Shown piece by piece: positions 15,848-52,761 of a DNA stretch of 64,000 nt. The position numbers were made by a program, and so were the translations under genes. The notes beneath the pieces were generated by a model. It was not told where the DNA came from. It ran no database searches and worked only from the letters and a program-made list of their open reading frames with translations. The stretch is from Candidatus Aenigmatarchaeota archaeon (GTDB taxonomy: Archaea; Aenigmatarchaeota; Aenigmatarchaeia; QMZS01), in NCBI GenBank assembly GCA_030600555.1, contig JAUVLW010000002.1, positions 1,335-65,334 of the forward strand. Reading direction: 5' to 3'. Numbering within the stretch: position 1 is the stretch's first letter; each line of letters starts with the position of its first letter.

Positions 15848-15957
15848 GGGAAGGTAGCTCAGGCTGGGAGAGCGCACGGTTGAAGACCGTGATGTCGTGG
15901 GTACTCTTTTCTTGAAATCTTCTGAAAAGACGCCACAATCAAATCCCACTCTTCCCA
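15848..15957 (+). tRNA. tRNA-Phe (anticodon GAA) with a ~36-nt intron inside the T-loop (after T54)
   Basis: Hand fold: acceptor GGGAAGG/TCTTCCC, D-arm GCTC-AGGCTGGGA-GAGC, anticodon arm CACGG-TTGAAGA-CCGTG, T-stem GTGGG/CCCAC. The T-loop T|TCAAAT is interrupted by actcttttcttgaaatcttctgaaaagacgccacaa, which contains the hairpin TCTTTTC/GAAAAGA. Discriminator A, no encoded CCA. Confidence 0.7.
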
Positions 15958-16098: not shown

Positions 16099-17373
16099 AT
16101 GATTATGTATGTGTTAACTGAAGAAGGGGAAAAATATTTGAAAGAAGGATTGCCTGAAATAAATCTGATAAAAAAACTTTCAAAAAAAGAATTATCTGTT
16201 TCTGAGGCAAAAAAACTGGAGAATTTTAACATTGCTTTGCAGTGGGCAAAGAAAAACCAGTGGATTGAAATTGAAAAAGGAACAATGAAACTCACAAAAA
16301 CCGGAAATTCAGTTCTTGAGAAAAAATACGAAACTGAAGAATATTTGAAAGAAATTAAATCAGGAAAATTTGATGAGGATAAAATGAAAATACTATTGAC
16401 AAGAAATCTTGTAAGGAATGTCACTGAAAAAGAAATTGAAACCAAAAAATTAATTGGTAAAGAGGTGGTGGAATTGACTCCGGAAATTATTAAATCCGGA
16501 ATTTGGAGAGATATTAAGTTTAAGAAATATAATGTTGAATTTCCTGGAAAGAAAATTTATCCCGGAAAAAAACATCCTTTGAATCTAGTTTTTGAAAAAA
16601 TAAGGGAAGTTTTTATTGAAATGGGTTTTGATGAAATGCAAGGACCTTTGGTTGAAACCGCGTTCTGGAATATGGACTCAATGTTTATCCCGCAGGATCA
16701 TCCGGCGAGGGATATTCAGGATACTTTTTATCTTTCAGGAGAAGGAGATTTGCCTGACAAAAAAATAGTTAATAATGTTAAAGAGGTTCATGAGACTGGA
16801 GGCAATTCAGGTTCGAAAGGATGGAACCTGAAATGGGAACCTGAAATCGCAAAACAATTATTATTGAGAACACACACAACTTCTGTGACTTATAGGACTC
16901 TTGCGGGAGGAATTAAAATCCCCTGCAAGCGTTTTTGCATTGGCAGGGTTTTTAGGAATGAGGCTTCGGATGCAACCCACCTCCCTGAGTTTCATCATGC
17001 AGAAGGTTTTATTGCGGCGGAGAATCTTAATATAAGAACCTTGATGGGATTTATAAAATCATTTTATTCCAAGTTCGGATTGGACGAAGTGAAATTTAAA
17101 TTTAATTACAATCCCTACACAGAACCAAGTCTTGAGGCATTCGGATATTCAGAAAAGCTAGGGAGGTGGATTGAGTTAATAAATTCAGGAATCTTCAGAC
17201 CAGAATCTTTAGCTCCTTATGGAATTAAAGTTCCTGTGATTGCGTGGGGTTTTGGGATTGAAAGACTGGCAATGTTTATCTATGGAAATAAAAGCATCAA
17301 GGAAATTCTTGGACACACCTGTGATTTAAAATATTTGAGAAATTATGATTTATTGAAACTTGAAAAATGGTAA
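16099..17373 (+). CDS. pheS: Phenylalanyl-tRNA synthetase alpha subunit (archaeal type)
   Basis: Class II aaRS motifs (FRNE..., GFGIERLAM) in a 424-aa ORF. It overlaps pheT by 7 nt. Confidence 0.9.
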   Translation: MIMYVLTEEGEKYLKEGLPEINLIKKLSKKELSVSEAKKLENFNIALQWAKKNQWIEIEKGTMKLTKTGNSVLEKKYETEEYLKEIKSGKFDEDKMKILLTRNLVRNVTEKEIETKKLIGKEVVELTPEIIKSGIWRDIKFKKYNVEFPGKKIYPGKKHPLNLVFEKIREVFIEMGFDEMQGPLVETAFWNMDSMFIPQDHPARDIQDTFYLSGEGDLPDKKIVNNVKEVHETGGNSGSKGWNLKWEPEIAKQLLLRTHTTSVTYRTLAGGIKIPCKRFCIGRVFRNEASDATHLPEFHHAEGFIAAENLNIRTLMGFIKSFYSKFGLDEVKFKFNYNPYTEPSLEAFGYSEKLGRWIELINSGIFRPESLAPYGIKVPVIAWGFGIERLAMFIYGNKSIKEILGHTCDLKYLRNYDLLKLEKW

Positions 17374-18995
17374 TGTTAAATACGAGTCTGGGATATTTAA
17401 ATAGTTTAATAAAGAAGAAATTATCTTTGGACAAACTTGAGGATTTATTGTTCAATATGGGCTTTGAACTGGATGAAGTAAAAGGGGACGAGATTGCAAT
17501 AGAGATGACTGCTGAAAGACCTGATTTATTATGCGCTCATGGTCTTGCAAGAGCTATAAATCATTATCAAGGGGAAAAACCAAGAGAATACAAAACAAAG
17601 AAAAGCGGATATCAGGTTATTGTTGATAAATCTGTTTCGATGAGACCTTATACTGCATGCGCAATTGTTAGGAATATTCATTTTGATGATGAAGGGATTA
17701 AGCAGCTTATGCAGATGCAGGAGAAATTAGCGTCAACTTATGGGAGGAATAGAAACAAGTCAGCTTATGGATTATATCCTTTAAAAGGAATTAATTTTCC
17801 AATACATTATATTGCGAAAGACCCCAAAAAAATTAAGTTCAGACCTTTAGGTTTTGATAAAGAAGTAACTGCGATAGAAGTTGAACAAACTCATCCGAAA
17901 GGTAAAGAGTATAATTGGATTGCCAAGGACTGGAAAAAATATCCTTTTTTTATTGATGATAAAGATAATGTGATGTGTATGCTTCCTTATACAAATTCTG
18001 AAGATACTGGAAAAATTGATGATGCTACAACAGAAATTTTTATTGAGTGCACTGGCGTTGATTTGGAAAATGTAATGAAAGTACTCAATATTTTTGTTAC
18101 AATGTTTGTGGATATGGGTGGTGATGTTTATTCTCTGGAAATGATATATCCTGACAAAAAAATAGAAACCCCAAATTTAAATCCTGAAAAAATTAATCTG
18201 AAAAAATGCAATGCAGAAAGTATCCTTGGTTTGAAATTCTCTGATAAAGAAATATTTTCTCTTTTGGAGAAAACAGGTTATATAATAAAGGGAAATAAGA
18301 TTTTTGCACCCTGCTATCGCGCAGATATATTGCACGAGGTTGATGTTATAGATGATATTGCAAGAGCTTATGGACCCGGCAATTTTATTCCTGAGTTTCC
18401 GCAGGTATCAACAATAGGAAATTTAATGAGAAATACCAGAATAGAAACCAGAGTCAGGGAATTGATGGTTGGTCTTGGATTTCAGGAAGTCTTTACTCTA
18501 CTTCTTACCAGCAGGGAAGAGCAGTTTGGAAAGATGAGACTGGAAGGAGACGCAATATTGCTTGATGCTCAGGTTGATAAATCAATCAACATGATTAGGG
18601 TGTCTTTGTTGCCTGAATTGTTGAGGGTGCTAAAAACAAACCAGCATTATGAATTCCCTCAGAAAATATTTGAAGTTGGAAAAGTTTTATTTCCTGATAA
18701 GAAATCGGAGACCAGGTCAAGAGAGACCACTTATTTATCTTCAGTAATCTCAAATTCAATTTCCACTTATGAGGAAATATCTTCAGTTCTAAATTCAATA
18801 TTTTCCAATTTGAATATTTCTTATAAATTAAAGGAAACTGAAGACCGGAGATTTATAAAAGGGAGAGTTGCAAAAATAATTGTTGATGGAAAAGCGAGAG
18901 GGATAATCGGCGAGATTTGCCCCAAGGTTTTGGATAATTTCAAACTTGATAATCCCACAACAGGTTTTGAATTGGATTTGGATTTTTTAAATTAA
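17367..18995 (+). CDS. pheT: Phenylalanyl-tRNA synthetase beta subunit (archaeal type)
   Basis: 542 aa with B3/B4 and B5 domain-like segments. Operonic with pheS. Confidence 0.9.
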   Translation: MVMLNTSLGYLNSLIKKKLSLDKLEDLLFNMGFELDEVKGDEIAIEMTAERPDLLCAHGLARAINHYQGEKPREYKTKKSGYQVIVDKSVSMRPYTACAIVRNIHFDDEGIKQLMQMQEKLASTYGRNRNKSAYGLYPLKGINFPIHYIAKDPKKIKFRPLGFDKEVTAIEVEQTHPKGKEYNWIAKDWKKYPFFIDDKDNVMCMLPYTNSEDTGKIDDATTEIFIECTGVDLENVMKVLNIFVTMFVDMGGDVYSLEMIYPDKKIETPNLNPEKINLKKCNAESILGLKFSDKEIFSLLEKTGYIIKGNKIFAPCYRADILHEVDVIDDIARAYGPGNFIPEFPQVSTIGNLMRNTRIETRVRELMVGLGFQEVFTLLLTSREEQFGKMRLEGDAILLDAQVDKSINMIRVSLLPELLRVLKTNQHYEFPQKIFEVGKVLFPDKKSETRSRETTYLSSVISNSISTYEEISSVLNSIFSNLNISYKLKETEDRRFIKGRVAKIIVDGKARGIIGEICPKVLDNFKLDNPTTGFELDLDFLN

Positions 18996-22548: not shown

Positions 22549-23808
22549 ATGCGGTTGTTAAGTAGATTTTTTAAGAAAAAAGAGGAAATATCAACAAAAG
22601 ACCTGAATTTTGATGAAATTGGCAGTTTTGTGGACGAAGAATTTAGAGATAAGAAACAGGAACTTTTGAAGGTATCTGAAAAATTCCGAAAGTCTTTGGT
22701 TAATCAGCTCGATTCACTGGAAGGTCTTTTCAAGAAACTTCTGGATTCTGATTTTGAACCTGTTATTTTACAGGATAAAAGAGATATTTCAAATATTGTT
22801 GAAACCAGTAAAAAGAATTATTGTTCTAATTCAGAAAAATTAATTGTCCGGGTGGTGGATTCCTTAAATGAAAAACCTTCACCTTTTAAAATAAAATCAA
22901 TTGTTTTAGAGACTTTCAACAAATTAAATAATTTTTCAAGAGAAGCTCTTATTCTTTTACACCCTTTTGGGAAAGATATGAAGTGCATAGCTTCTGGGTT
23001 GAAAGAATTTAAGAAAGAAATAGATAATTTTGAATCGTTTCTTAATTCAGATTACAAACTCATTTCTGATGTGGAAGAAGCGGAAAGAATTGTTTATAAA
23101 ATAAATCATCTTGAAGAGAATAAGATTAAATCTGGTAAAAGAAAAGTTGAATTGGATAAAAAGACAACTGAGTTAAAAAAAGAGATGAAAACCCAGAATT
23201 TAAAACTTTCTGAGCTGGTTTCTTCAAAGGAATCAAGAAATCTCGCAAAACTTGAAAAACAACAAAAAGAATTTGAGTTGCAATCAGAGAAACTTATGGC
23301 GGATGCAACGCAATTAGTCTCCAGGGTCAGCAGACAGATTAAAGGATACATTCATAATTGCAAACCCGATAAAGAACAAATAATAAAAATTGAAAATTTT
23401 CTTGATAATCCTGAATTATTGCTCCAAAAATCTAATTTTTTTGTAGATGTGATTGAGAATGTAAAAAAAGACCTTGATAAAATAGAACCAGACGAAAAAA
23501 AAAGAAAGAAATTTTTGAGTATTGAAGAAAACATAAAAGATTTAATAAAAGAAACCCAGATAAAACATAAAGAAATTTCCAATAAACTTATTGAAAATAT
23601 CGCAGCCATAAAAGAATTAAAACCCAGATTAACAACTGAAAAATTTGAGAAGAATCTTAAAAAATTGGATGAAAATATGAATCAATTGGACGAAGAAAAG
23701 AAAAATATTAAATTGGAATCTAGTGGGGATGTAGGAGAATTATTAAATGAACTTGAAAAAGTATTGTCTTCTATTTCAAATAAGGAAATAAGAATTAATA
23801 AAAAGTAG
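22549..23808 (+). CDS. Hypothetical K/E-rich coiled-coil protein
   Basis: 419 aa, strongly heptad-like K/E/L composition. No catalytic motif. Confidence 0.45.
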   Translation: MRLLSRFFKKKEEISTKDLNFDEIGSFVDEEFRDKKQELLKVSEKFRKSLVNQLDSLEGLFKKLLDSDFEPVILQDKRDISNIVETSKKNYCSNSEKLIVRVVDSLNEKPSPFKIKSIVLETFNKLNNFSREALILLHPFGKDMKCIASGLKEFKKEIDNFESFLNSDYKLISDVEEAERIVYKINHLEENKIKSGKRKVELDKKTTELKKEMKTQNLKLSELVSSKESRNLAKLEKQQKEFELQSEKLMADATQLVSRVSRQIKGYIHNCKPDKEQIIKIENFLDNPELLLQKSNFFVDVIENVKKDLDKIEPDEKKRKKFLSIEENIKDLIKETQIKHKEISNKLIENIAAIKELKPRLTTEKFEKNLKKLDENMNQLDEEKKNIKLESSGDVGELLNELEKVLSSISNKEIRINKK

Positions 23809-24092
23809 CCCCGCGCGGATTCGAATACCGCCGAACTTCAAAAAACACTCGTCGTTCCAACAGTGCAAGCGTTTCCTTTGGAAACGATGCATCATTTGCT
23901 TTGCAAATAAATGCCTCATTTTGCTTTGCAAAATGAAAGTTCGATCATTTACCCTATCTTCGATTTCGTCTCAATAGGCTTTCCGCGGTCACAGGATCCA
24001 GGGTCCTATATGCCTAACCCTCTCCTTGTTTCATAAAATGACTTTTTTCGTTCATTCAATCAAAGAAAGCTTGGCCACTACACTACGGGGCT
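23806..24092 (-). tRNA. tRNA-Gln (anticodon CUG) with two non-canonical introns (~57 nt in the D-arm, ~157 nt at T-stem/T-loop junction 53/54)
   Basis: Hand fold on the minus strand: A1-U72 acceptor AGCCCCG/CGGGGCT with discriminator A, the archaeal tRNA-Gln hallmark. D-arm GTGT-AGTGGCCAA-GCAT split by an intron. Anticodon arm TAGGA-CCCTGGA-TCCTG (position 33 is C, which is unusual). Variable TGAC. T-stem CGCGG...CCGCG with the long intron before the TTCGAAT loop. The 3' end overlaps the TAG stop of the upstream CDS. Confidence 0.55.
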
Positions 24093-27697: not shown

Positions 27698-29455
27698 TTA
27701 TCGCTTTAGTAATTCCAAAACTTCTTCACTGTCAACTCTTTTTCCATATTTTTTCATAATTTCCCCCATCGCCTTTTTCCCATATTTTTTTGTATAATTT
27801 CCAATAATTTTCTTCAATTCAACTCCTGAAATTTTCTCAAATCCTTTAATAGTTTTATTGGTTAAAACATTTTCTATTGCTTTTTTTACAATTTTTCCTT
27901 TTTCCAGATTTTTAAGAACAAATTCCAAATCTTTTTTTACAATTTTAATATTTTTTCTTTCAAGAGATTTCTTTTTATTTAGAATTAAATCGGCAATTAT
28001 TTTAGGTTCAACTTTATATTTTAAAAGTTCTTCAAATAAACCTAACTCTTTGTTTTTTGAAATTTGTTCCGCTAAATCTTTGCTTAAACCTAATTTTAAA
28101 AATCTTGCTGATTTTTCTTCAAGAGATTCTGGTAATTTTATCTTATTTAGATATTTGTTAAGGTCTATTTTTGGAAGGTCTGTTTCAGGGTACATTCTTG
28201 CGGCTCCGGGCAATTCACGGGCGTATCTTGTGAGAATATCTTCCGCAAATCTGGTTTCTTCAGGAATCCCTTTACCAAGAGATAAAATTCTTTTTTTAAT
28301 TAATTCCAAAGCATTCCTGCAGTTTTCCCCTGTTATCAGCAAAAACAAATCTTTTTCTTTTGCGCAAATTTCTTTTTTTAAATGATTAATTTCTTTTGAA
28401 TCAAACTGATATTTTTTAAGGTCTTCATCTGAATGGATAATTCCTCCAATCCCGAAAACTTTTGCATAATTTGCGATTTCTTTTCCCAGAGTTATTTCAC
28501 CACAGGGATTTTTAAATAATCCTGAAAGATTTTCTATTTTCAAACATAATATTTTTTCCTTATCTTTTAGAATTTTGCATTTTGATGATTTAAATAAATC
28601 TGTCACTTCTTTTTCAGTTAATTTTATTGGTTTATTTTTTAATTTTTCTTTTATTGAAATTAAATCCAGTTGTCTTTTAACTTCATTTTCTATTAATTTG
28701 TCAAGTTTTTTTAATTCCTGAAATCCTTTAATTTCTATTCTGGAACCTCCTTTTATTGAGATATTTACATCCTGTCTTATTGTTCCGATGCCTCTTTGCA
28801 CTTTTAGGCTTCTGAGCAACAATCCAATTTTTGATGCAAATTCTTTTGCCTGTTCAGGATGCCAGATGTCAGGGTGACAACTAAGTTCAATTAATGGAAT
28901 CCCTAACCGGTCAAGCCTGTAATAAATCATCTTTTCTTTTTCTTTAATTTTTGTTGCGCTTTCTTCTTCAAGATTTAGATCCTGGATATGGACTTTCCCA
29001 AAACTGGTTTCAATATAAGAATTCTCATTCCCTTTTCCAACCAAAGAAGTTCTTTGATAACCTGTGGTGTTGCTCCCGTCAATAACAACTTTTCTCATTA
29101 TCTGCAGTGAGTCGGGAACACACATTTTTAATATTTTGGCTAATTGCAAACTAATTAAAAGAGCCTCTTCGTTTAATTCATTTGGAAATTTTGAGTCTGT
29201 TTCAACAGAGCAGCAGTTTGGATAAGAATAATATGTAAATTCTTTATCTTTTAAGAATTCCTGCATTGCGGCTTTGTCAACTTCACCTGTTTCACTCGCC
29301 GTTGGTCTTAATTTTCTTGAGAATTCAAAAACCGGGTTTTCGTCTTCTGAAATTTCTGTTGAACAGTTGCAGAATAGTTTTGTTTTTGTTGCCAGTCTCT
29401 GATGTATTTCTATACCAATTTTTAAACCTATTTTTTTATAGTCAATCATAATCAA
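27698..29455 (-). CDS. gatE: Glutamyl-tRNA(Gln) amidotransferase subunit E (GatE; GatB/GatE family)
   Basis: N-terminal GIEIHQRL...KLFCNC motif of GatB/E. The 585-aa length and an internal insertion favour GatE. C-terminal YqeY-like tail. No gatD in the window. Confidence 0.65.
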   Translation of the reverse strand: MIMIDYKKIGLKIGIEIHQRLATKTKLFCNCSTEISEDENPVFEFSRKLRPTASETGEVDKAAMQEFLKDKEFTYYSYPNCCSVETDSKFPNELNEEALLISLQLAKILKMCVPDSLQIMRKVVIDGSNTTGYQRTSLVGKGNENSYIETSFGKVHIQDLNLEEESATKIKEKEKMIYYRLDRLGIPLIELSCHPDIWHPEQAKEFASKIGLLLRSLKVQRGIGTIRQDVNISIKGGSRIEIKGFQELKKLDKLIENEVKRQLDLISIKEKLKNKPIKLTEKEVTDLFKSSKCKILKDKEKILCLKIENLSGLFKNPCGEITLGKEIANYAKVFGIGGIIHSDEDLKKYQFDSKEINHLKKEICAKEKDLFLLITGENCRNALELIKKRILSLGKGIPEETRFAEDILTRYARELPGAARMYPETDLPKIDLNKYLNKIKLPESLEEKSARFLKLGLSKDLAEQISKNKELGLFEELLKYKVEPKIIADLILNKKKSLERKNIKIVKKDLEFVLKNLEKGKIVKKAIENVLTNKTIKGFEKISGVELKKIIGNYTKKYGKKAMGEIMKKYGKRVDSEEVLELLKR

Positions 29456-30457: not shown

Positions 30458-30667
30458 GCTGGGGTGGCCGAGTGGCTAAAGACTTTCTTTCTCAAAAGAA
30501 AGTCCTTAACGTCAAAGAAAGGAAAATTTGTCGCTTCGCGACATATATCCAAAAGACGTTAAATTCCACAATAAGGCGCTAGCCTGCTAAGCTAGTTTCT
30601 GTAATGGATCCCTGGGAAATCTTTTCTTTAACAGAAAGGTTCAGGTATTCGAATCCCAGCCCCAGCG
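30458..30667 (+). tRNA. tRNA-Ser (anticodon GCU) with two non-canonical introns (~92 nt in D-loop/D-stem, ~31 nt at T-arm position 53/54)
   Basis: Hand fold: acceptor GCTGGGG/CCCCAGC with discriminator G. Type-II D-arm GCC-GAGTGGCTAAA-GGC split by an intron. Anticodon arm CTAGC-CTGCTAA-GCTAG. 16-nt variable arm. T-stem CTGGG/CCCAG with an intron before TTCGAAT. Both introns contain strong hairpins. Confidence 0.6.
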
Positions 30668-30693
30668 TTTATATTATACTTATTGTATTTATT

Positions 30694-31341
30694 ATGTTGT
30701 ATCTGATAAATTTCAAGACTTATGAAGAAGGTTTGGGAGATAAAGGCATAAAGCTGGCAAATTTGATTGCGGAAGTTGGAAAAAAATTAAATGCGGAAAT
30801 ATGGGCGGCCCCTCAGTTCACAGATTTAAAAGAAATTTCAAAGATAGCCTCAACGTTGTCGCAGCATATTGACCCTGTTTCATTTGGTTCTCACACAGGT
30901 TCTGTTTTACCGGCTTCAGTTAAAGACGCTGGTGTGATAGGCACTTTAATTAATCATTCTGAGAGGAGATTACCTTTGGATAAAATAGAAGGAATTATAA
31001 ATGCTTCAAAGTTATCTGGCATAAAGACTGTTTGTTGTGCTGCTGATTTAAAAGAAGTGATGGAGATTGCAAAATTTTCGCCTGATTATATTGCTTATGA
31101 AGACCCTGAATTAATCGGTTCCGGCAGGTCAATAGCTCAGGAAAAACCCGAAGCAATTTCTGAGTTTGTGGGAGTTCTAAAAGATTTAAATCCAGGGATT
31201 ATTCCTTTATGCGGGGCAGGAATCGCAACCAAGCAGGATGTGCAGATTGCAAAAGATTTGGGCACGAAAGGAGTGTTGGTTGCTTCCGCGATTGTTAAGG
31301 CCGAAGACCAGAGGGAAGCTTTATTGAACTTGGTTTTGTAA
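30694..31341 (+). CDS. tpiA: Triosephosphate isomerase (archaeal short type)
   Basis: MLYLINFKTYEEG start and the GTLINHSERR active-site motif of archaeal TIM. Track start 30604 would overlap tRNA-Ser, so the ATG at 30694 is preferred. Confidence 0.85.
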   Translation: MLYLINFKTYEEGLGDKGIKLANLIAEVGKKLNAEIWAAPQFTDLKEISKIASTLSQHIDPVSFGSHTGSVLPASVKDAGVIGTLINHSERRLPLDKIEGIINASKLSGIKTVCCAADLKEVMEIAKFSPDYIAYEDPELIGSGRSIAQEKPEAISEFVGVLKDLNPGIIPLCGAGIATKQDVQIAKDLGTKGVLVASAIVKAEDQREALLNLVL

Positions 31342-31773: not shown

Positions 31774-32814
31774 TTATTTCCGGTTGTAAATATTCAAACA
31801 AGGGAATGCTATTTCTATCTTATTTTTCCTGAATTCTTTTGTTAATGCTTTTATAAATTCATGTTTCATTTTATATTGGCTGACAAATTCTTTTACCCTT
31901 AGGATTATTGAAAATTCTATGTTTGAATCCCCAAAATTCTTGAATCTCATAAGAGGTTCATAATCTTCAACACCGCCATCCACAGATTTTAATGTTTTTT
32001 TGGCAACAGCTATTGTTATTTTCTCAACTTTTTCAAGGTCCGAATCATAACCAACACCACAATTAACCGAAAATGATAATTCTTCGGTTGGGTCGGAATA
32101 ATTGGTAACAATCATTTCTGATAATTTGGCGTTTGGGATAATAACAAGATTGTTTGGAAGGGTTCTTATTTGTGTTGATCTCCACCCGATTTTTTCAACA
32201 TGACCTTTTAGACCCCCATTTTCAAGTTCAATATAATCTCCAATTTTAATTGACCTGTCTGAAGAAATATATAAACCCGCAAAATAATTGGCCAGCGTGC
32301 TTTGAAGGGCAAGAGCAACAGCCAAACCCGCAACACCTAAACTGGCTATTAGAGGCGTTATTTCAACCTTAAAATAGTTTAAGATGATGAAAAGACCCAT
32401 TAGGTAAATGAAAATGTTAATTAATCCTTTTAAACTAAGGAAAACCGTTTTTTGGGCTCTTGAGGTTTTATCTTTGGTTGTATGGTGCATCACGAAGGTA
32501 TCCACAATTTTTATTAAAGTCCAGGTTCCAAGACCAACACCAGCAATTACAAATAAGGTTTCTATCGGGGCTTTGTAAATTGTAAGAATTTTTAGGGTTT
32601 CTGTTGCATAATAACCACCAATTAATAGAATGCCTATATAAATTGGTTTGTGGCAGGTTTCCAGTAATTCATCATCCAGAGTAGTTTTTGTTTTTGCGGT
32701 TATTTTTGCCACATATTGTTTAAGCGTAAAATAGAATATTTTTGCGCAAATAACTGAACCAATTATAATTAAAATAGCATATAAATAATCCTGCGGAATT
32801 ATATTTTCAAACAT
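31774..32814 (-). CDS. Mechanosensitive ion channel, MscS family
   Basis: Three N-terminal TMs plus the conserved MscS beta-domain (IKIGDYIELENGGLKGHVEKIGWRSTQIRT). Confidence 0.85.
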   Translation of the reverse strand: MFENIIPQDYLYAILIIIGSVICAKIFYFTLKQYVAKITAKTKTTLDDELLETCHKPIYIGILLIGGYYATETLKILTIYKAPIETLFVIAGVGLGTWTLIKIVDTFVMHHTTKDKTSRAQKTVFLSLKGLINIFIYLMGLFIILNYFKVEITPLIASLGVAGLAVALALQSTLANYFAGLYISSDRSIKIGDYIELENGGLKGHVEKIGWRSTQIRTLPNNLVIIPNAKLSEMIVTNYSDPTEELSFSVNCGVGYDSDLEKVEKITIAVAKKTLKSVDGGVEDYEPLMRFKNFGDSNIEFSIILRVKEFVSQYKMKHEFIKALTKEFRKNKIEIAFPCLNIYNRK

Positions 32815-32882
32815 AATTACTTATAAATTATACATAAAAAAGTAATAATTGCTTTGTTTATTTTTTTAGGAAGATTAATTAT

Positions 32883-33111
32883 AGCCCCGTAGTCTAGCGG
32901 CCCATCTTTTTTCGATAGATTGTCATATGAAGCGAGGAAAGGGTCAAGGATTCTGGCCTTTGGAGTTCAAAGGAAAGAGCAAATATTAATTTGCGATGAT
33001 TGAAGTTAGCCAGCGACCGCGGTTCGAAGCAACACTTTTCAAGATAATTGTTGAAAAAGGTCTGCACCCCAAAACATAAATTAGGGTAGAACGAGAATCC
33101 GCGCGGGGCTA
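32883..33111 (+). tRNA. tRNA-Gln (anticodon UUG) with three introns (D-loop ~42 nt; canonical 37/38 ~44 nt; T-loop ~65 nt)
   Basis: Hand fold: acceptor AGCCCCG/CGGGGCT, same as the CUG isoacceptor. D-arm GTCT...GGAT interrupted. Anticodon arm CTGGC-CTTTGG|intron|A-GCCAG. Variable CGAC. T-arm CGCGG-TTCGA|intron|AT-CCGCG. Confidence 0.55.
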
Positions 33112-33147
33112 TGATTAAATAGAAATAAATATGAATTTACTAAATTT

Positions 33148-33720
33148 ATGAACCAAATAGAAAAAGCCGCAGAGGTTTTAAAGTTGGGTGGAATAATCGC
33201 ATATCCAACCGAAACAGTTTACGGGCTTGGAGTGAATATTTTTGATGAGACTGCAATAAGAAGATTATTTGAGATAAAGCGCAGGTCTCTAAACAAACCA
33301 ATTTCTGTTGCTGTGGCAAATTTTAAAATGTTGAATGATATTGCATGCGTTTTTGAGAAGGACAAAGAGCTTCTGGAGAAATTATTGCCCGGACCTGTGA
33401 CAATAATTTTTCCCAGAAAAGAAGTTGTTTCTGATTTGCTCGCCGCAGGAAGAGATTTAATAGGGATAAGATTTCCTGAAAATGAAACAACAAGAGAAAT
33501 AATAGAAAAAGCCGGATTTCCAATAACAGCAACCTCAGCGAACTTTTCAGGTGAGGGGGATGTTACTGAAGCTGAATATGTGAAACCGGAAGTTGATTTT
33601 GTTGTTAACGGAGACTGTAAATATAAGAGACCCTCTACAGTCGTTGATTTGAGCAACAGGAGAATTTTGAGAGAAGGTGTTAATTTGGAGAGGGTTAAAC
33701 AGGTGTTAAAATTAAGCTGA
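33148..33720 (+). CDS. tsaC: L-threonylcarbamoyladenylate synthase (TsaC/YrdC-type, short form)
   Basis: YPTETVYGLG motif and 190-aa length. Confidence 0.85.
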   Translation: MNQIEKAAEVLKLGGIIAYPTETVYGLGVNIFDETAIRRLFEIKRRSLNKPISVAVANFKMLNDIACVFEKDKELLEKLLPGPVTIIFPRKEVVSDLLAAGRDLIGIRFPENETTREIIEKAGFPITATSANFSGEGDVTEAEYVKPEVDFVVNGDCKYKRPSTVVDLSNRRILREGVNLERVKQVLKLS

Positions 33721-52656: not shown

Positions 52657-52761
52657 TGCATCGATCGGGATTCGATTACAGCACTATTCCGGCAAACCAG
52701 AACAAATGTACCCGAATTGTTGGCTTGGAAGGCCAATGTCCTACCGTTAGACTATCGATGC
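52657..52761 (-). tRNA. tRNA-Gly (anticodon UCC) with a ~34-nt intron in the T-loop (after T54)
   Basis: Hand fold of the minus strand: acceptor GCATCGA/TCGATGC with discriminator A, D-arm GTCT-AACGGTA-GGAC, anticodon arm TTGGC-CTTCCAA-GCCAA, T-stem TCGGG/CCCGA. The loop T|TCGAAT is interrupted by ACATTTGTTCTGGTTTGCCGGAATAGTGCTGTAA. Same intron position as in tRNA-Phe. Confidence 0.65.

Follow-up and report, generated by a model that had tools for sequence, protein, structure and literature searches.

Clouet-d'Orval in 2001 and Singh in 2004 are said to have described the intron of pre-tRNA-Trp as a box C/D guide, and Sugahara et al., in 2008, reportedly described the multiple-intron tRNA genes of Thermoproteales. 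Archaeal tRNAs with several introns (up to three) and broad-specificity variants of the endonuclease EndA are established (PMC4033280, PMC5829648): PMC4033280 gives three introns as the archaeal maximum, found mainly in Thermoproteales, and the disrupted tRNA genes of DPANN archaea have been linked to endonucleases with an extra loop (PMC5829648). The euryarchaeal pre-tRNA-Trp intron guides the ribose methylations Cm34 and Um39 (PMC7994747, PMC7714728, PMC2584109). In Sulfolobus acidocaldarius, Um34 has been observed in tRNA-Gln(UUG), and a separate C/D small RNA (sRNA) has been predicted as its guide (PMC7668247). Here we analyse a 64,000-nt stretch of archaeal DNA (the window), in which positions 32883-33111 (+) very probably constitute a functional Aenigmarchaeota (DPANN) tRNA-Gln(UUG) gene with three protein-spliced introns, at 21/22, 37/38 and 59/60. 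The most interesting outcome is a guide-like module in the canonical intron.

Anatomy and conservation of the tRNA-Gln(UUG) gene

Standard tRNA finders are blind to the unspliced locus: ARAGORN returned no tRNA on the whole unspliced window, and the Rfam tRNA model gave no tRNA match over 32780-33220 at E<=10 (at the gathering threshold, it reported only two tRNAs in the window, 15848-15957 and 52657-52761). The gene therefore had to be rebuilt by scanning the 229-nt stretch for bulge-helix-bulge (BHB) motifs, with a 4-bp central helix and cuts after the second nucleotide of each 3-nt bulge, a cut rule adopted because position 32 is known to pair with a nucleotide of the intron that lies three bases ahead of the 3' splice site. 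The scan resolves the stretch into four exons and three introns, which fall at 21/22, 37/38 and 59/60 in standard numbering and are 43, 44 and 69 nt long. A preliminary description of this DNA had proposed a three-intron tRNA-Gln(UUG) disrupted in the D-loop, at 37/38 and in the T-loop, and the scan arrives at the same sites; its 44 nt for the 37/38 intron stands, and its values of ~42 nt (D-loop) and ~65 nt (T-loop) are corrected to 43 and 69 nt.

The spliced 73-mer reads AGCCCCG TA GTCT AGCGGCCCA GGAT T CTGGC CTTTGGA GCCAG CGAC CGCGG TTCGAAT CCGCG CGGGGCT A and is called tRNA-Gln(ttg) by ARAGORN, in line with the exons and cloverleaf rebuilt in the preliminary description, all pieces of which are present in the sequence. 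Once the introns are removed the canonical cloverleaf is back: according to ARAGORN, the acceptor stem has 7 bp, the D-loop 9 nt and the variable loop 4 nt, and the T-loop reads TTCGAAT. The invariant residues are all there (U8, A14, G18 G19, A21, U33, G53 T54 T55 C56, A58, C61 and A73), as are the features of an archaeal tRNA-Gln, namely the anticodon TTG in a class I cloverleaf, A1-T72 and A73. The 5' 20 nt of the gene are identical to those of more than 100 archaeal Gln genes, and the G+C content of the exons is 67%, compared with 30-37% in the introns and 33% over the whole window.

All parts of the gene lie on the + strand. Exon 1 (32883-32904, positions 1-21) comprises the 5' strand of the acceptor stem, U8 A9, the D-stem strand GTCT and the D-loop AGCGGCCCA; exon 2 (32948-32963, positions 22-37) continues with the 3' strand of the D-stem, GGAT, followed by T26, the anticodon stem strand CTGGC and the loop CTTTGG with the anticodon TTG. 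Exon 3 (33008-33028, positions 38-59) holds A38, the anticodon stem's 3' strand GCCAG, the variable loop CGAC, the T-stem strand CGCGG and TTCGAA of the T-loop, and exon 4 (33098-33111, positions 60-73) holds T60, the 3' strands of the T-stem (CCGCG) and of the acceptor stem (CGGGGCT) and the discriminator A73, with no encoded CCA. Upstream, at 32857-32867 (+), that is, -26 to -16 from the mature 5' end, we read from the sequence a TATA-like box, TTTATTTTTTT, which we infer to be the promoter element.

A central helix with four out of four base pairs is found at all three introns. Intron 1 (32905-32947, 43 nt) has a relaxed HBh' motif, in which the central helix GGCC/GGTC is accompanied by the bulges CA|T and AA|G and by a 9-bp inner helix, CTTTTTTCG/CGAGGAAAG. 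Its central and inner helices have 98.9% of cells paired in seven homologues, including one C-G to U-A double change, and the register is specific, as sliding the partners cuts pairing to 69% or less; against shuffles, the statistical support is modest, only 26 of 500 scoring lower. At intron 2 (32964-33007, 44 nt), the outer helix is the 5-bp anticodon stem and the central helix pairs C32-U35 (CTTT) with GAAG at 33002-33005, the bulges being GG|A and TT|A; this intron is nearly invariant and therefore uninformative on helix maintenance in homologues. Intron 3 (33029-33097, 69 nt) has a relaxed hBH motif, with the 5-bp T-stem as outer helix, the central helix TTCG/CGAG, the bulges AA|G and AA|T, and an interior of two hairpins with no inner helix (z-score -2.5). 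In its orthologues, the intron strand of the central helix still pairs (CGAG or TGAG) and the bulge varies (AA or CA), as expected because the latter positions are unpaired.

We compared six distinct positional orthologues, namely the window, L128, L004 (= L130), L002 (= L131), L132 and L129; the closest relatives are labelled Aenigmatarchaeota (L004 is isolate B56_G9, L088/L128 is CSMAG_2581 and L050/L129 is RS_11_5). The gene order runs from triosephosphate isomerase through an MscS channel, tRNA-Gln(UUG) and Sua5/YrdC to other genes as far as those of ribosomal proteins L10 and L1. The placement of the tRNA gene between MscS and Sua5/YrdC is common to L004/L130, L128, L129, L002/L131 and L132, and the flanking proteins are 80-97% identical to their counterparts, in the same order, in L004, L002, L128 and L129; an identical flanking protein occurs in a 65-kb NCBI contig and in a Logan assembly of SRR18936875. 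This assigns the window to an Aenigmarchaeota genome. All six orthologues have introns at 21/22 and 37/38 plus a third one in the T arm, their exons vary only at positions 26 and 44, and the 52 nt upstream, which include TTTATTTTTTT, are nearly identical in the window, L128, L004, L129, L131 and L132. Intron 1 shows 0-10 differences among the six, intron 2 shows 0-4 in 44-45 nt, and intron 3 diverges by 10-20%; the constraint on the 37/38 intron is much stronger than that on introns 1 and 3.

More distant relatives were collected with the first 20 nt of the gene as query against a single genome of each species, which gave more than 118 archaeal loci, mostly from DPANN lineages and Thermoplasmata. 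Among 116 distinct Gln genes, 36 are intron-less and 11 have introns in all three regions, the latter being those of the window clade, of the Aenigmarchaeota-type L073 and L083, and of L058, L098 and L065 (recorded as Woesearchaeota or 'uncultured Methanosarcinales'). Each of the three intron sites is widely used in the Gln genes of DPANN and Thermoplasmata. The three-intron layout is thus uncommon, not unique: against the rarity first attributed to it, a share of 11 in 116 distinct sampled Gln genes is not very rare for DPANN. In the literature searched, we found no prior documentation of a three-intron tRNA in Aenigmarchaeota.

The gene is not an isolated case in the window. All five tRNA genes found there carry non-canonical introns (nine introns in total, only one of them at the canonical site); ARAGORN finds none of the five genes and Rfam only two, and removal of the non-canonical introns gives ARAGORN-positive tRNAs for all five. 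The organism must therefore splice such junctions.

A guide-like module in the canonical intron

Intron 2 has the layout A-G-U-[UCAAAGG]-A-[AAGA]-[GCAAAU AUUA AUUUGC]-[GAU-GA-UU]-[GAAG]-UU. The antisense element TCAAAGG (32967-32973, +) is complementary to tRNA positions 37-31, with which it forms seven contiguous pairs, and the A at 32970, which is the fifth nucleotide upstream of a D'-like box, pairs with the wobble U34. A kink-turn (K-turn)-like module, recognized by a motif scan and by covariation of the pairs flanking the G.A pairs, follows at 32975-33001 (+): it is made of the D'-like box AAGA (32975-32978), the hairpin GCAAAT-ATTA-ATTTGC (32979-32994) and the C'-like GAUGAUU (32995-33001), the latter consisting of a 3-nt bulge, GAU, a sheared GA, and UU, which pairs with AA in the D'-like box. 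The boxes are degenerate with respect to the consensus.

The scripted motif scan was run on all 41 distinct Gln genes that carry a 37/38 intron; L129, which was mis-parsed, was left out. Every Aenigmarchaeota-type UUG intron scanned displays the same succession of antisense element, NNGA, hairpin or short loop, and N-R-U-GA; these nine distinct introns (window clade, L018, L022, L023, L052, L064, L073, L083 and L104) are quite unlike in primary sequence, and L022 combines a perfect CUGA with a 5-nt loop. The K-turn-like motif was found in none of 28 37/38 introns from other lineages. The NNGA ... N-R-U-GA pair is present in nine out of nine introns and both adjoining pairs are present in eight, L104 having one mismatch; the best register falls on position 34 in eight of the nine, L104 again being the exception. 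In mononucleotide shuffles, the combined motif appeared in 0.4-2.4% of trials per intron.

In a hand-assembled core alignment of the nine introns, 95% of the cells are paired, and four of nine pairs change on both sides, including both pairs next to the G.A pairs. The intron also covaries with the exon to which it is antisense: exon position 31 forms G-C, C-G, U-A or G-U pairs with it and position 33 forms U-A or C-G pairs, the C33 genes L018, L023 and L104 having the matching G in their antisense element. The covariation score is 0.48 versus 0.23 for shuffles (0/500) and collapses on sliding the partners, with the caveat that the alignment was built from motif-selected segments and that the introns share ancestry. 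The antisense hairpin conformer (-13.3 kcal/mol) is present in the minimum-free-energy structure and the BHB conformer is predicted at -9.1 kcal/mol, a folding that supports a switch between the two.

We did not file intron 2 as a box C/D sRNA because it has no terminal boxes (reading the sequence, we found neither a box C near its 5' end nor a box D near its 3' end), has a single K-turn, and forms a duplex of 7 bp, shorter than the usual 8-12 bp; nor did any Rfam C/D family match intron 2 at E<=10. Inspection by eye of intron 1, intron 3 and the 53/54 intron of the paralogue described below disclosed no K-turn-like motif conserved between orthologues, and our literature search returned no description of an element of this kind, either in tRNA-Gln introns or in Aenigmarchaeota. 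A snoR4a-like C/D match at 33107-33154 (+; 19.9 bits, E 0.63), running from the last tRNA bases into the start of Sua5, was discarded as probably due to chance because its box-like TGATTA recurs in L128 alone, L004, L129, L131 and L132 having lost or never had it.

The tRNA-Gln(CUG) paralogue and the T-arm introns

A second Gln gene, with two introns, lies at 23806-24092 (-), where the preliminary description had rightly noticed a CUG isoacceptor with the same acceptor and T-arm sequence. Its spliced product is called tRNA-Gln(ctg) by ARAGORN, and its sequence recurs identically in an independent Logan assembly. The intron at 24014-24070 (57 nt, site 21/22) combines the central helix GGCC/GGTT with an inner helix of 9 bp, and is identical to intron 1 of the UUG gene at 29 of 43 positions, the extra length being apical; the 21/22 introns of both genes share a central helix GGCC/GGTY and a homologous inner helix with one C-G to U-A compensatory change, a homology that lies below the sensitivity of blastn-short. 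The other intron, at 23826-23982 (157 nt, site 53/54), has the central helix CCGC/GCGG and the bulges GG|A and TA|T (direct reading). There is no 37/38 intron in the CUG gene. As judged from this comparison, the two genes have one intron in common by descent, another is confined to the UUG gene, and those of the T arm are different. The two genes had initially been described as having their introns at different positions, which cannot be maintained for the 21/22 intron.

The T-arm introns show a more complex distribution. Type A, the 59/60 intron of the window, also occurs in the UUG and CUG genes of L128, where the two copies are identical to each other at 62 of 63 positions and only 90% identical to that of the window. 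Type A with a ~65-nt insertion is found in the UUG genes of L002 and L132 and in the CUG genes of L050, L136 and L137, and direct comparison of the L137 CUG intron with the L132 UUG intron reveals a single base difference. Type B, the 53/54 intron of the window CUG gene, sits in the UUG gene of L004/L130, and further T-arm intron types are present in L129 (UUG) and L135 (CUG). Positional orthologues thus differ in their T-arm intron, whereas paralogues in one genome match. The simplest explanation for this pattern is that T-arm introns would swap between the Gln genes by gene conversion, with occasional intron replacement, because both Gln genes are identical in sequence from the T stem onward. 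Another route considered for the swap, an inversion through crossover of the inverted Gln genes, was rejected because the 53/54-type intron adjoins Sua5 in L004 and a 419-aa gene in the window, with synteny unchanged. A metagenome scan with GatE for contigs carrying both Gln genes gave eight loci and no further Gln genes.

Several observations on the two genes are worth recording. The 157-nt CUG intron is ~90 nt longer than the homologous L004 intron, and part of the extra sequence consists of three tandem hairpins with CAAAG-type loops, CATTTTGCAAAGCAAAATG, CATTTATTTGCAAAGCAAATGATG and CGTTTCCAAAGGAAACG. The ~65-nt insertion (L002/L131, L132, L050, L136 and L137) has hairpins of its own (…AAAACCTAAATTYGC…GCGAATTTAGGTGCTGTTCTACCAYAGAAC…) and is located within the second hairpin of type A, and looks like a nested insertion inside the intron. 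The CUG gene has C33 (loop CCCUGGA) in place of the near-universal U33; C33 is found in 9 of 114 parsed Gln genes, CUG and UUG alike, the other loci being L050, L108, L033, L094, L018, L023, L064 and L104. Finally, GatE (27698-29455, -), which is one subunit of the archaeal Glu-tRNA(Gln) amidotransferase, is located midway between the divergently oriented tRNA-Gln genes, an arrangement kept in L128, L129 and L130.

The three remaining tRNA genes of the window are likewise disrupted. tRNA-Ser(GCU), at 30458-30668 (+), has a 93-nt intron in the D arm (30482-30574) and a 31-nt intron at 53/54 (30617-30647; central helix CCTG/CAGG); it was missed by ARAGORN and Rfam in unspliced form and is recognized as tRNA-Ser(gct) after splicing. 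The gene overlaps the 5' extension of the open reading frame (ORF) 30604-31341, which encodes triosephosphate isomerase; this overlap, together with orthologues of 215 aa, indicates that the true start of the latter lies further downstream. tRNA-Phe(GAA), at 15848-15957 (+), has a 36-nt T-loop intron at 54/55 (15903-15938) and directly precedes the genes for the alpha and beta subunits of PheRS (16099-18992), and tRNA-Gly(UCC), at 52657-52761 (-), has a 34-nt T-loop intron at 54/55 (52676-52709), with three of four pairs in the central helix. Outside the window, a 104-nt class II tRNA with an insertion in the anticodon arm lies near the Gln gene of L104 (4146-4249, +) and of L018 (6522-6625, -); one tentative reading by eye gives an A34 anticodon (AAG).

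Alternative readings and comparison with known systems

Two alternatives concern the gene itself. It is extremely improbable that we are dealing with a decaying pseudogene or an artefact of assembly, in which a former tRNA-Gln gene is riddled with junk insertions: such a view accords with the absence of any call by standard tRNA finders, but in six genomes with protein differences of 3-20% the exons are fixed except for two loop/junction sites, BHB pairing is kept with a compensatory change, and the promoter region is conserved. Moreover, the 3' part of the UUG gene is also present in an independent Logan assembly (L001), and the window holds no second tRNA-Gln(UUG) gene. The other alternative, in which intron 1 would be 41 nt long (32906-32946) and cut in an AUC bulge, so that the tRNA would measure 75 nt and its D-loop, AGCGGCCCAUA, 11 nt, is very unlikely. 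Indeed, even though the minimum-free-energy fold pairs GGCCC with GGGUC and leaves AUC bulged, the 41-nt register is among the BHB scan results with an 8-bp inner helix, and ARAGORN also accepts the 75-mer, an 11-nt D-loop occurs in none of the 116 distinct Gln genes. The intron-less relatives read AGYGGCC[A/C/T]A and then directly the D-stem, with a 9-nt D-loop in every one, and the D arms of the intron-less L112 and L057 read GGCCCA, matching the 9-nt D-loop AGCGGCCCA of the 43-nt register, which also provides the 9-bp inner helix and puts A21 in the correct place. The 41-nt register was therefore rejected. Several points nevertheless weigh against a functional gene with three protein-spliced introns as we describe it: the exact register of intron 1 rests on homology, folding preferring a 5-bp helix and the AUC bulge; introns 2 and 3 have no proper inner helix; and the BHB conformer of intron 2 is less stable (-9.1 kcal/mol) than the antisense hairpin (-13.3 kcal/mol). 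In addition, a Pfam scan of 40 window ORFs identified none of EndA, RtcB, fibrillarin, Nop5 and L7Ae, and no splicing or methylation protein appears among the Pfam labels of the orthologues in the 24-43 kb part; the machinery is thus assumed.

As to the 37/38 intron, a tentative reading, to which we give slightly less than even weight, is that it is a minimal guide with a single K-turn (D'/C'-only) placed inside its own target, on which L7Ae-Nop5-fibrillarin would direct formation of Um34 before BHB splicing. A structural role alone, with the K-turn module replacing the inner helix, the antisense element masking the anticodon loop, L7Ae possibly helping EndA at the module, and no guided methylation, is rather unlikely. 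It draws support from six of the nine distinct introns, in which the sheared GA and two pairs directly abut the intron strand of the central helix, so that the module stacks where the inner helix should be, and from the single K-turn, the lack of terminal boxes and a 7-bp duplex that is short for a guide. However, masking leaves unexplained both the fixed register (fifth nucleotide to U34 in eight of nine introns) and the covariation of the intron with exon positions 31 and 33, and Um34 with a predicted C/D guide is documented in the tRNA-Gln(UUG) of S. acidocaldarius (PMC7668247). Regarding the T arm, the view that its differences reflect independent insertions or transposition of mobile introns instead of exchange between paralogues is quite unlikely. 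From 53/54 to 59/60, close relatives display at least five sequence types, a turnover that resembles the intron transposition described in Thermoproteales (PMC4090602). Yet the near-identity of the L128 paralogues is repeated in a second lineage by L132 (UUG) and L137 (CUG), the variant with the ~65-nt insertion occurs in UUG genes (L002, L132) as well as in CUG genes (L050, L136), and the 53/54 type is carried by the window's CUG gene and by the UUG gene of L004. Gene conversion across the identical 3' exons accounts for each of these observations. Furthermore, a search for intron copies elsewhere, which had been suggested as a check, gave only short chance matches within the window. The gain, loss or transposition initially proposed needs restating, as the T-arm pattern points to paralogue exchange together with intron turnover and favours conversion or turnover over independent gain; conversion and transposition may both be at work.

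Our proposal for the processing of this tRNA would be as follows; its guide steps are hypothetical, and the others draw on established archaeal tRNA biology. A precursor of ~229 nt would be transcribed from the conserved TATA-like promoter. The antisense element of intron 2 would first pair with the anticodon loop beside the K-turn, and L7Ae-Nop5-fibrillarin would assemble on the intron before splicing, so as to guide ribose methylation of U34; intron 2 would then refold into the BHB conformer for splicing. EndA, presumably of the broad-specificity type in view of the relaxed motifs at introns 1 and 3 and on the inner side of intron 2, would cut inside the 3-nt bulges, an RtcB-type ligase would join the exons, and CCA would then be added. 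The tRNA would finally be charged with Glu and converted to Gln-tRNA by GatDE.

These results confirm that the heavily disrupted tRNA genes of DPANN genomes escape standard finders; given that all five tRNA genes of the window are disrupted and that the finders miss most of them, tRNA complements of DPANN archaea and claims of 'missing tRNA' are unreliable. The Gln gene pair provides a clean natural example of intron inheritance, paralogue exchange and turnover at neighbouring sites, which bears on the spread of archaeal tRNA introns. If the guide reading is true, tRNA-Gln(UUG) would join tRNA-Trp as the second tRNA species whose intron encodes a guide, and its intron would represent a natural 'half-mer', that is, a functional C/D ribonucleoprotein with a single K-turn; it would also supply a selective reason to keep the canonical intron and explain why intron 2 is frozen beside the turnover of its neighbours.

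The locus resembles the multi-intron tRNAs of Thermoproteales (PMC4033280) in its relaxed BHB motifs, a presumed dependence on a broad-specificity endonuclease and the three-intron maximum that is reached; in contrast to these crenarchaeal genes, it belongs to an AT-rich DPANN lineage, and its layout is inherited in a clade and partly common to a paralogous isoacceptor. Likewise, the occurrence of similar introns in different tRNA genes and a fast turnover between close relatives recall the intron transposition of Thermoproteales (PMC4090602), whereas sharing is confined here to two paralogous Gln genes with identical flanking exons, for which gene conversion is a simpler account than transposition to new sites. 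With the pre-tRNA-Trp intron, as documented in the sources cited above, intron 2 has in common the 37/38 site, an element antisense to its own anticodon loop beside a D'-type box, a fifth-nucleotide rule that leads to position 34, and mutually exclusive guide and BHB conformers. Unlike the Trp intron, it has one K-turn (D'/C'-like; AAGA or YUGA ... RUGA), no terminal C/D boxes and no second guide; it is mostly 38-52 nt long compared to ~60-100 nt for Trp, and its guide activity is putative. Finally, the S. acidocaldarius sRNA, which is predicted to target U34 and G18 (PMC7668247), corresponds to the putative guide described here in tRNA species, target nucleotide and RNA-guided ribose methylation; it is encoded by a separate sRNA gene, whereas the putative guide is part of an intron and would work either in cis or on a different precursor molecule.

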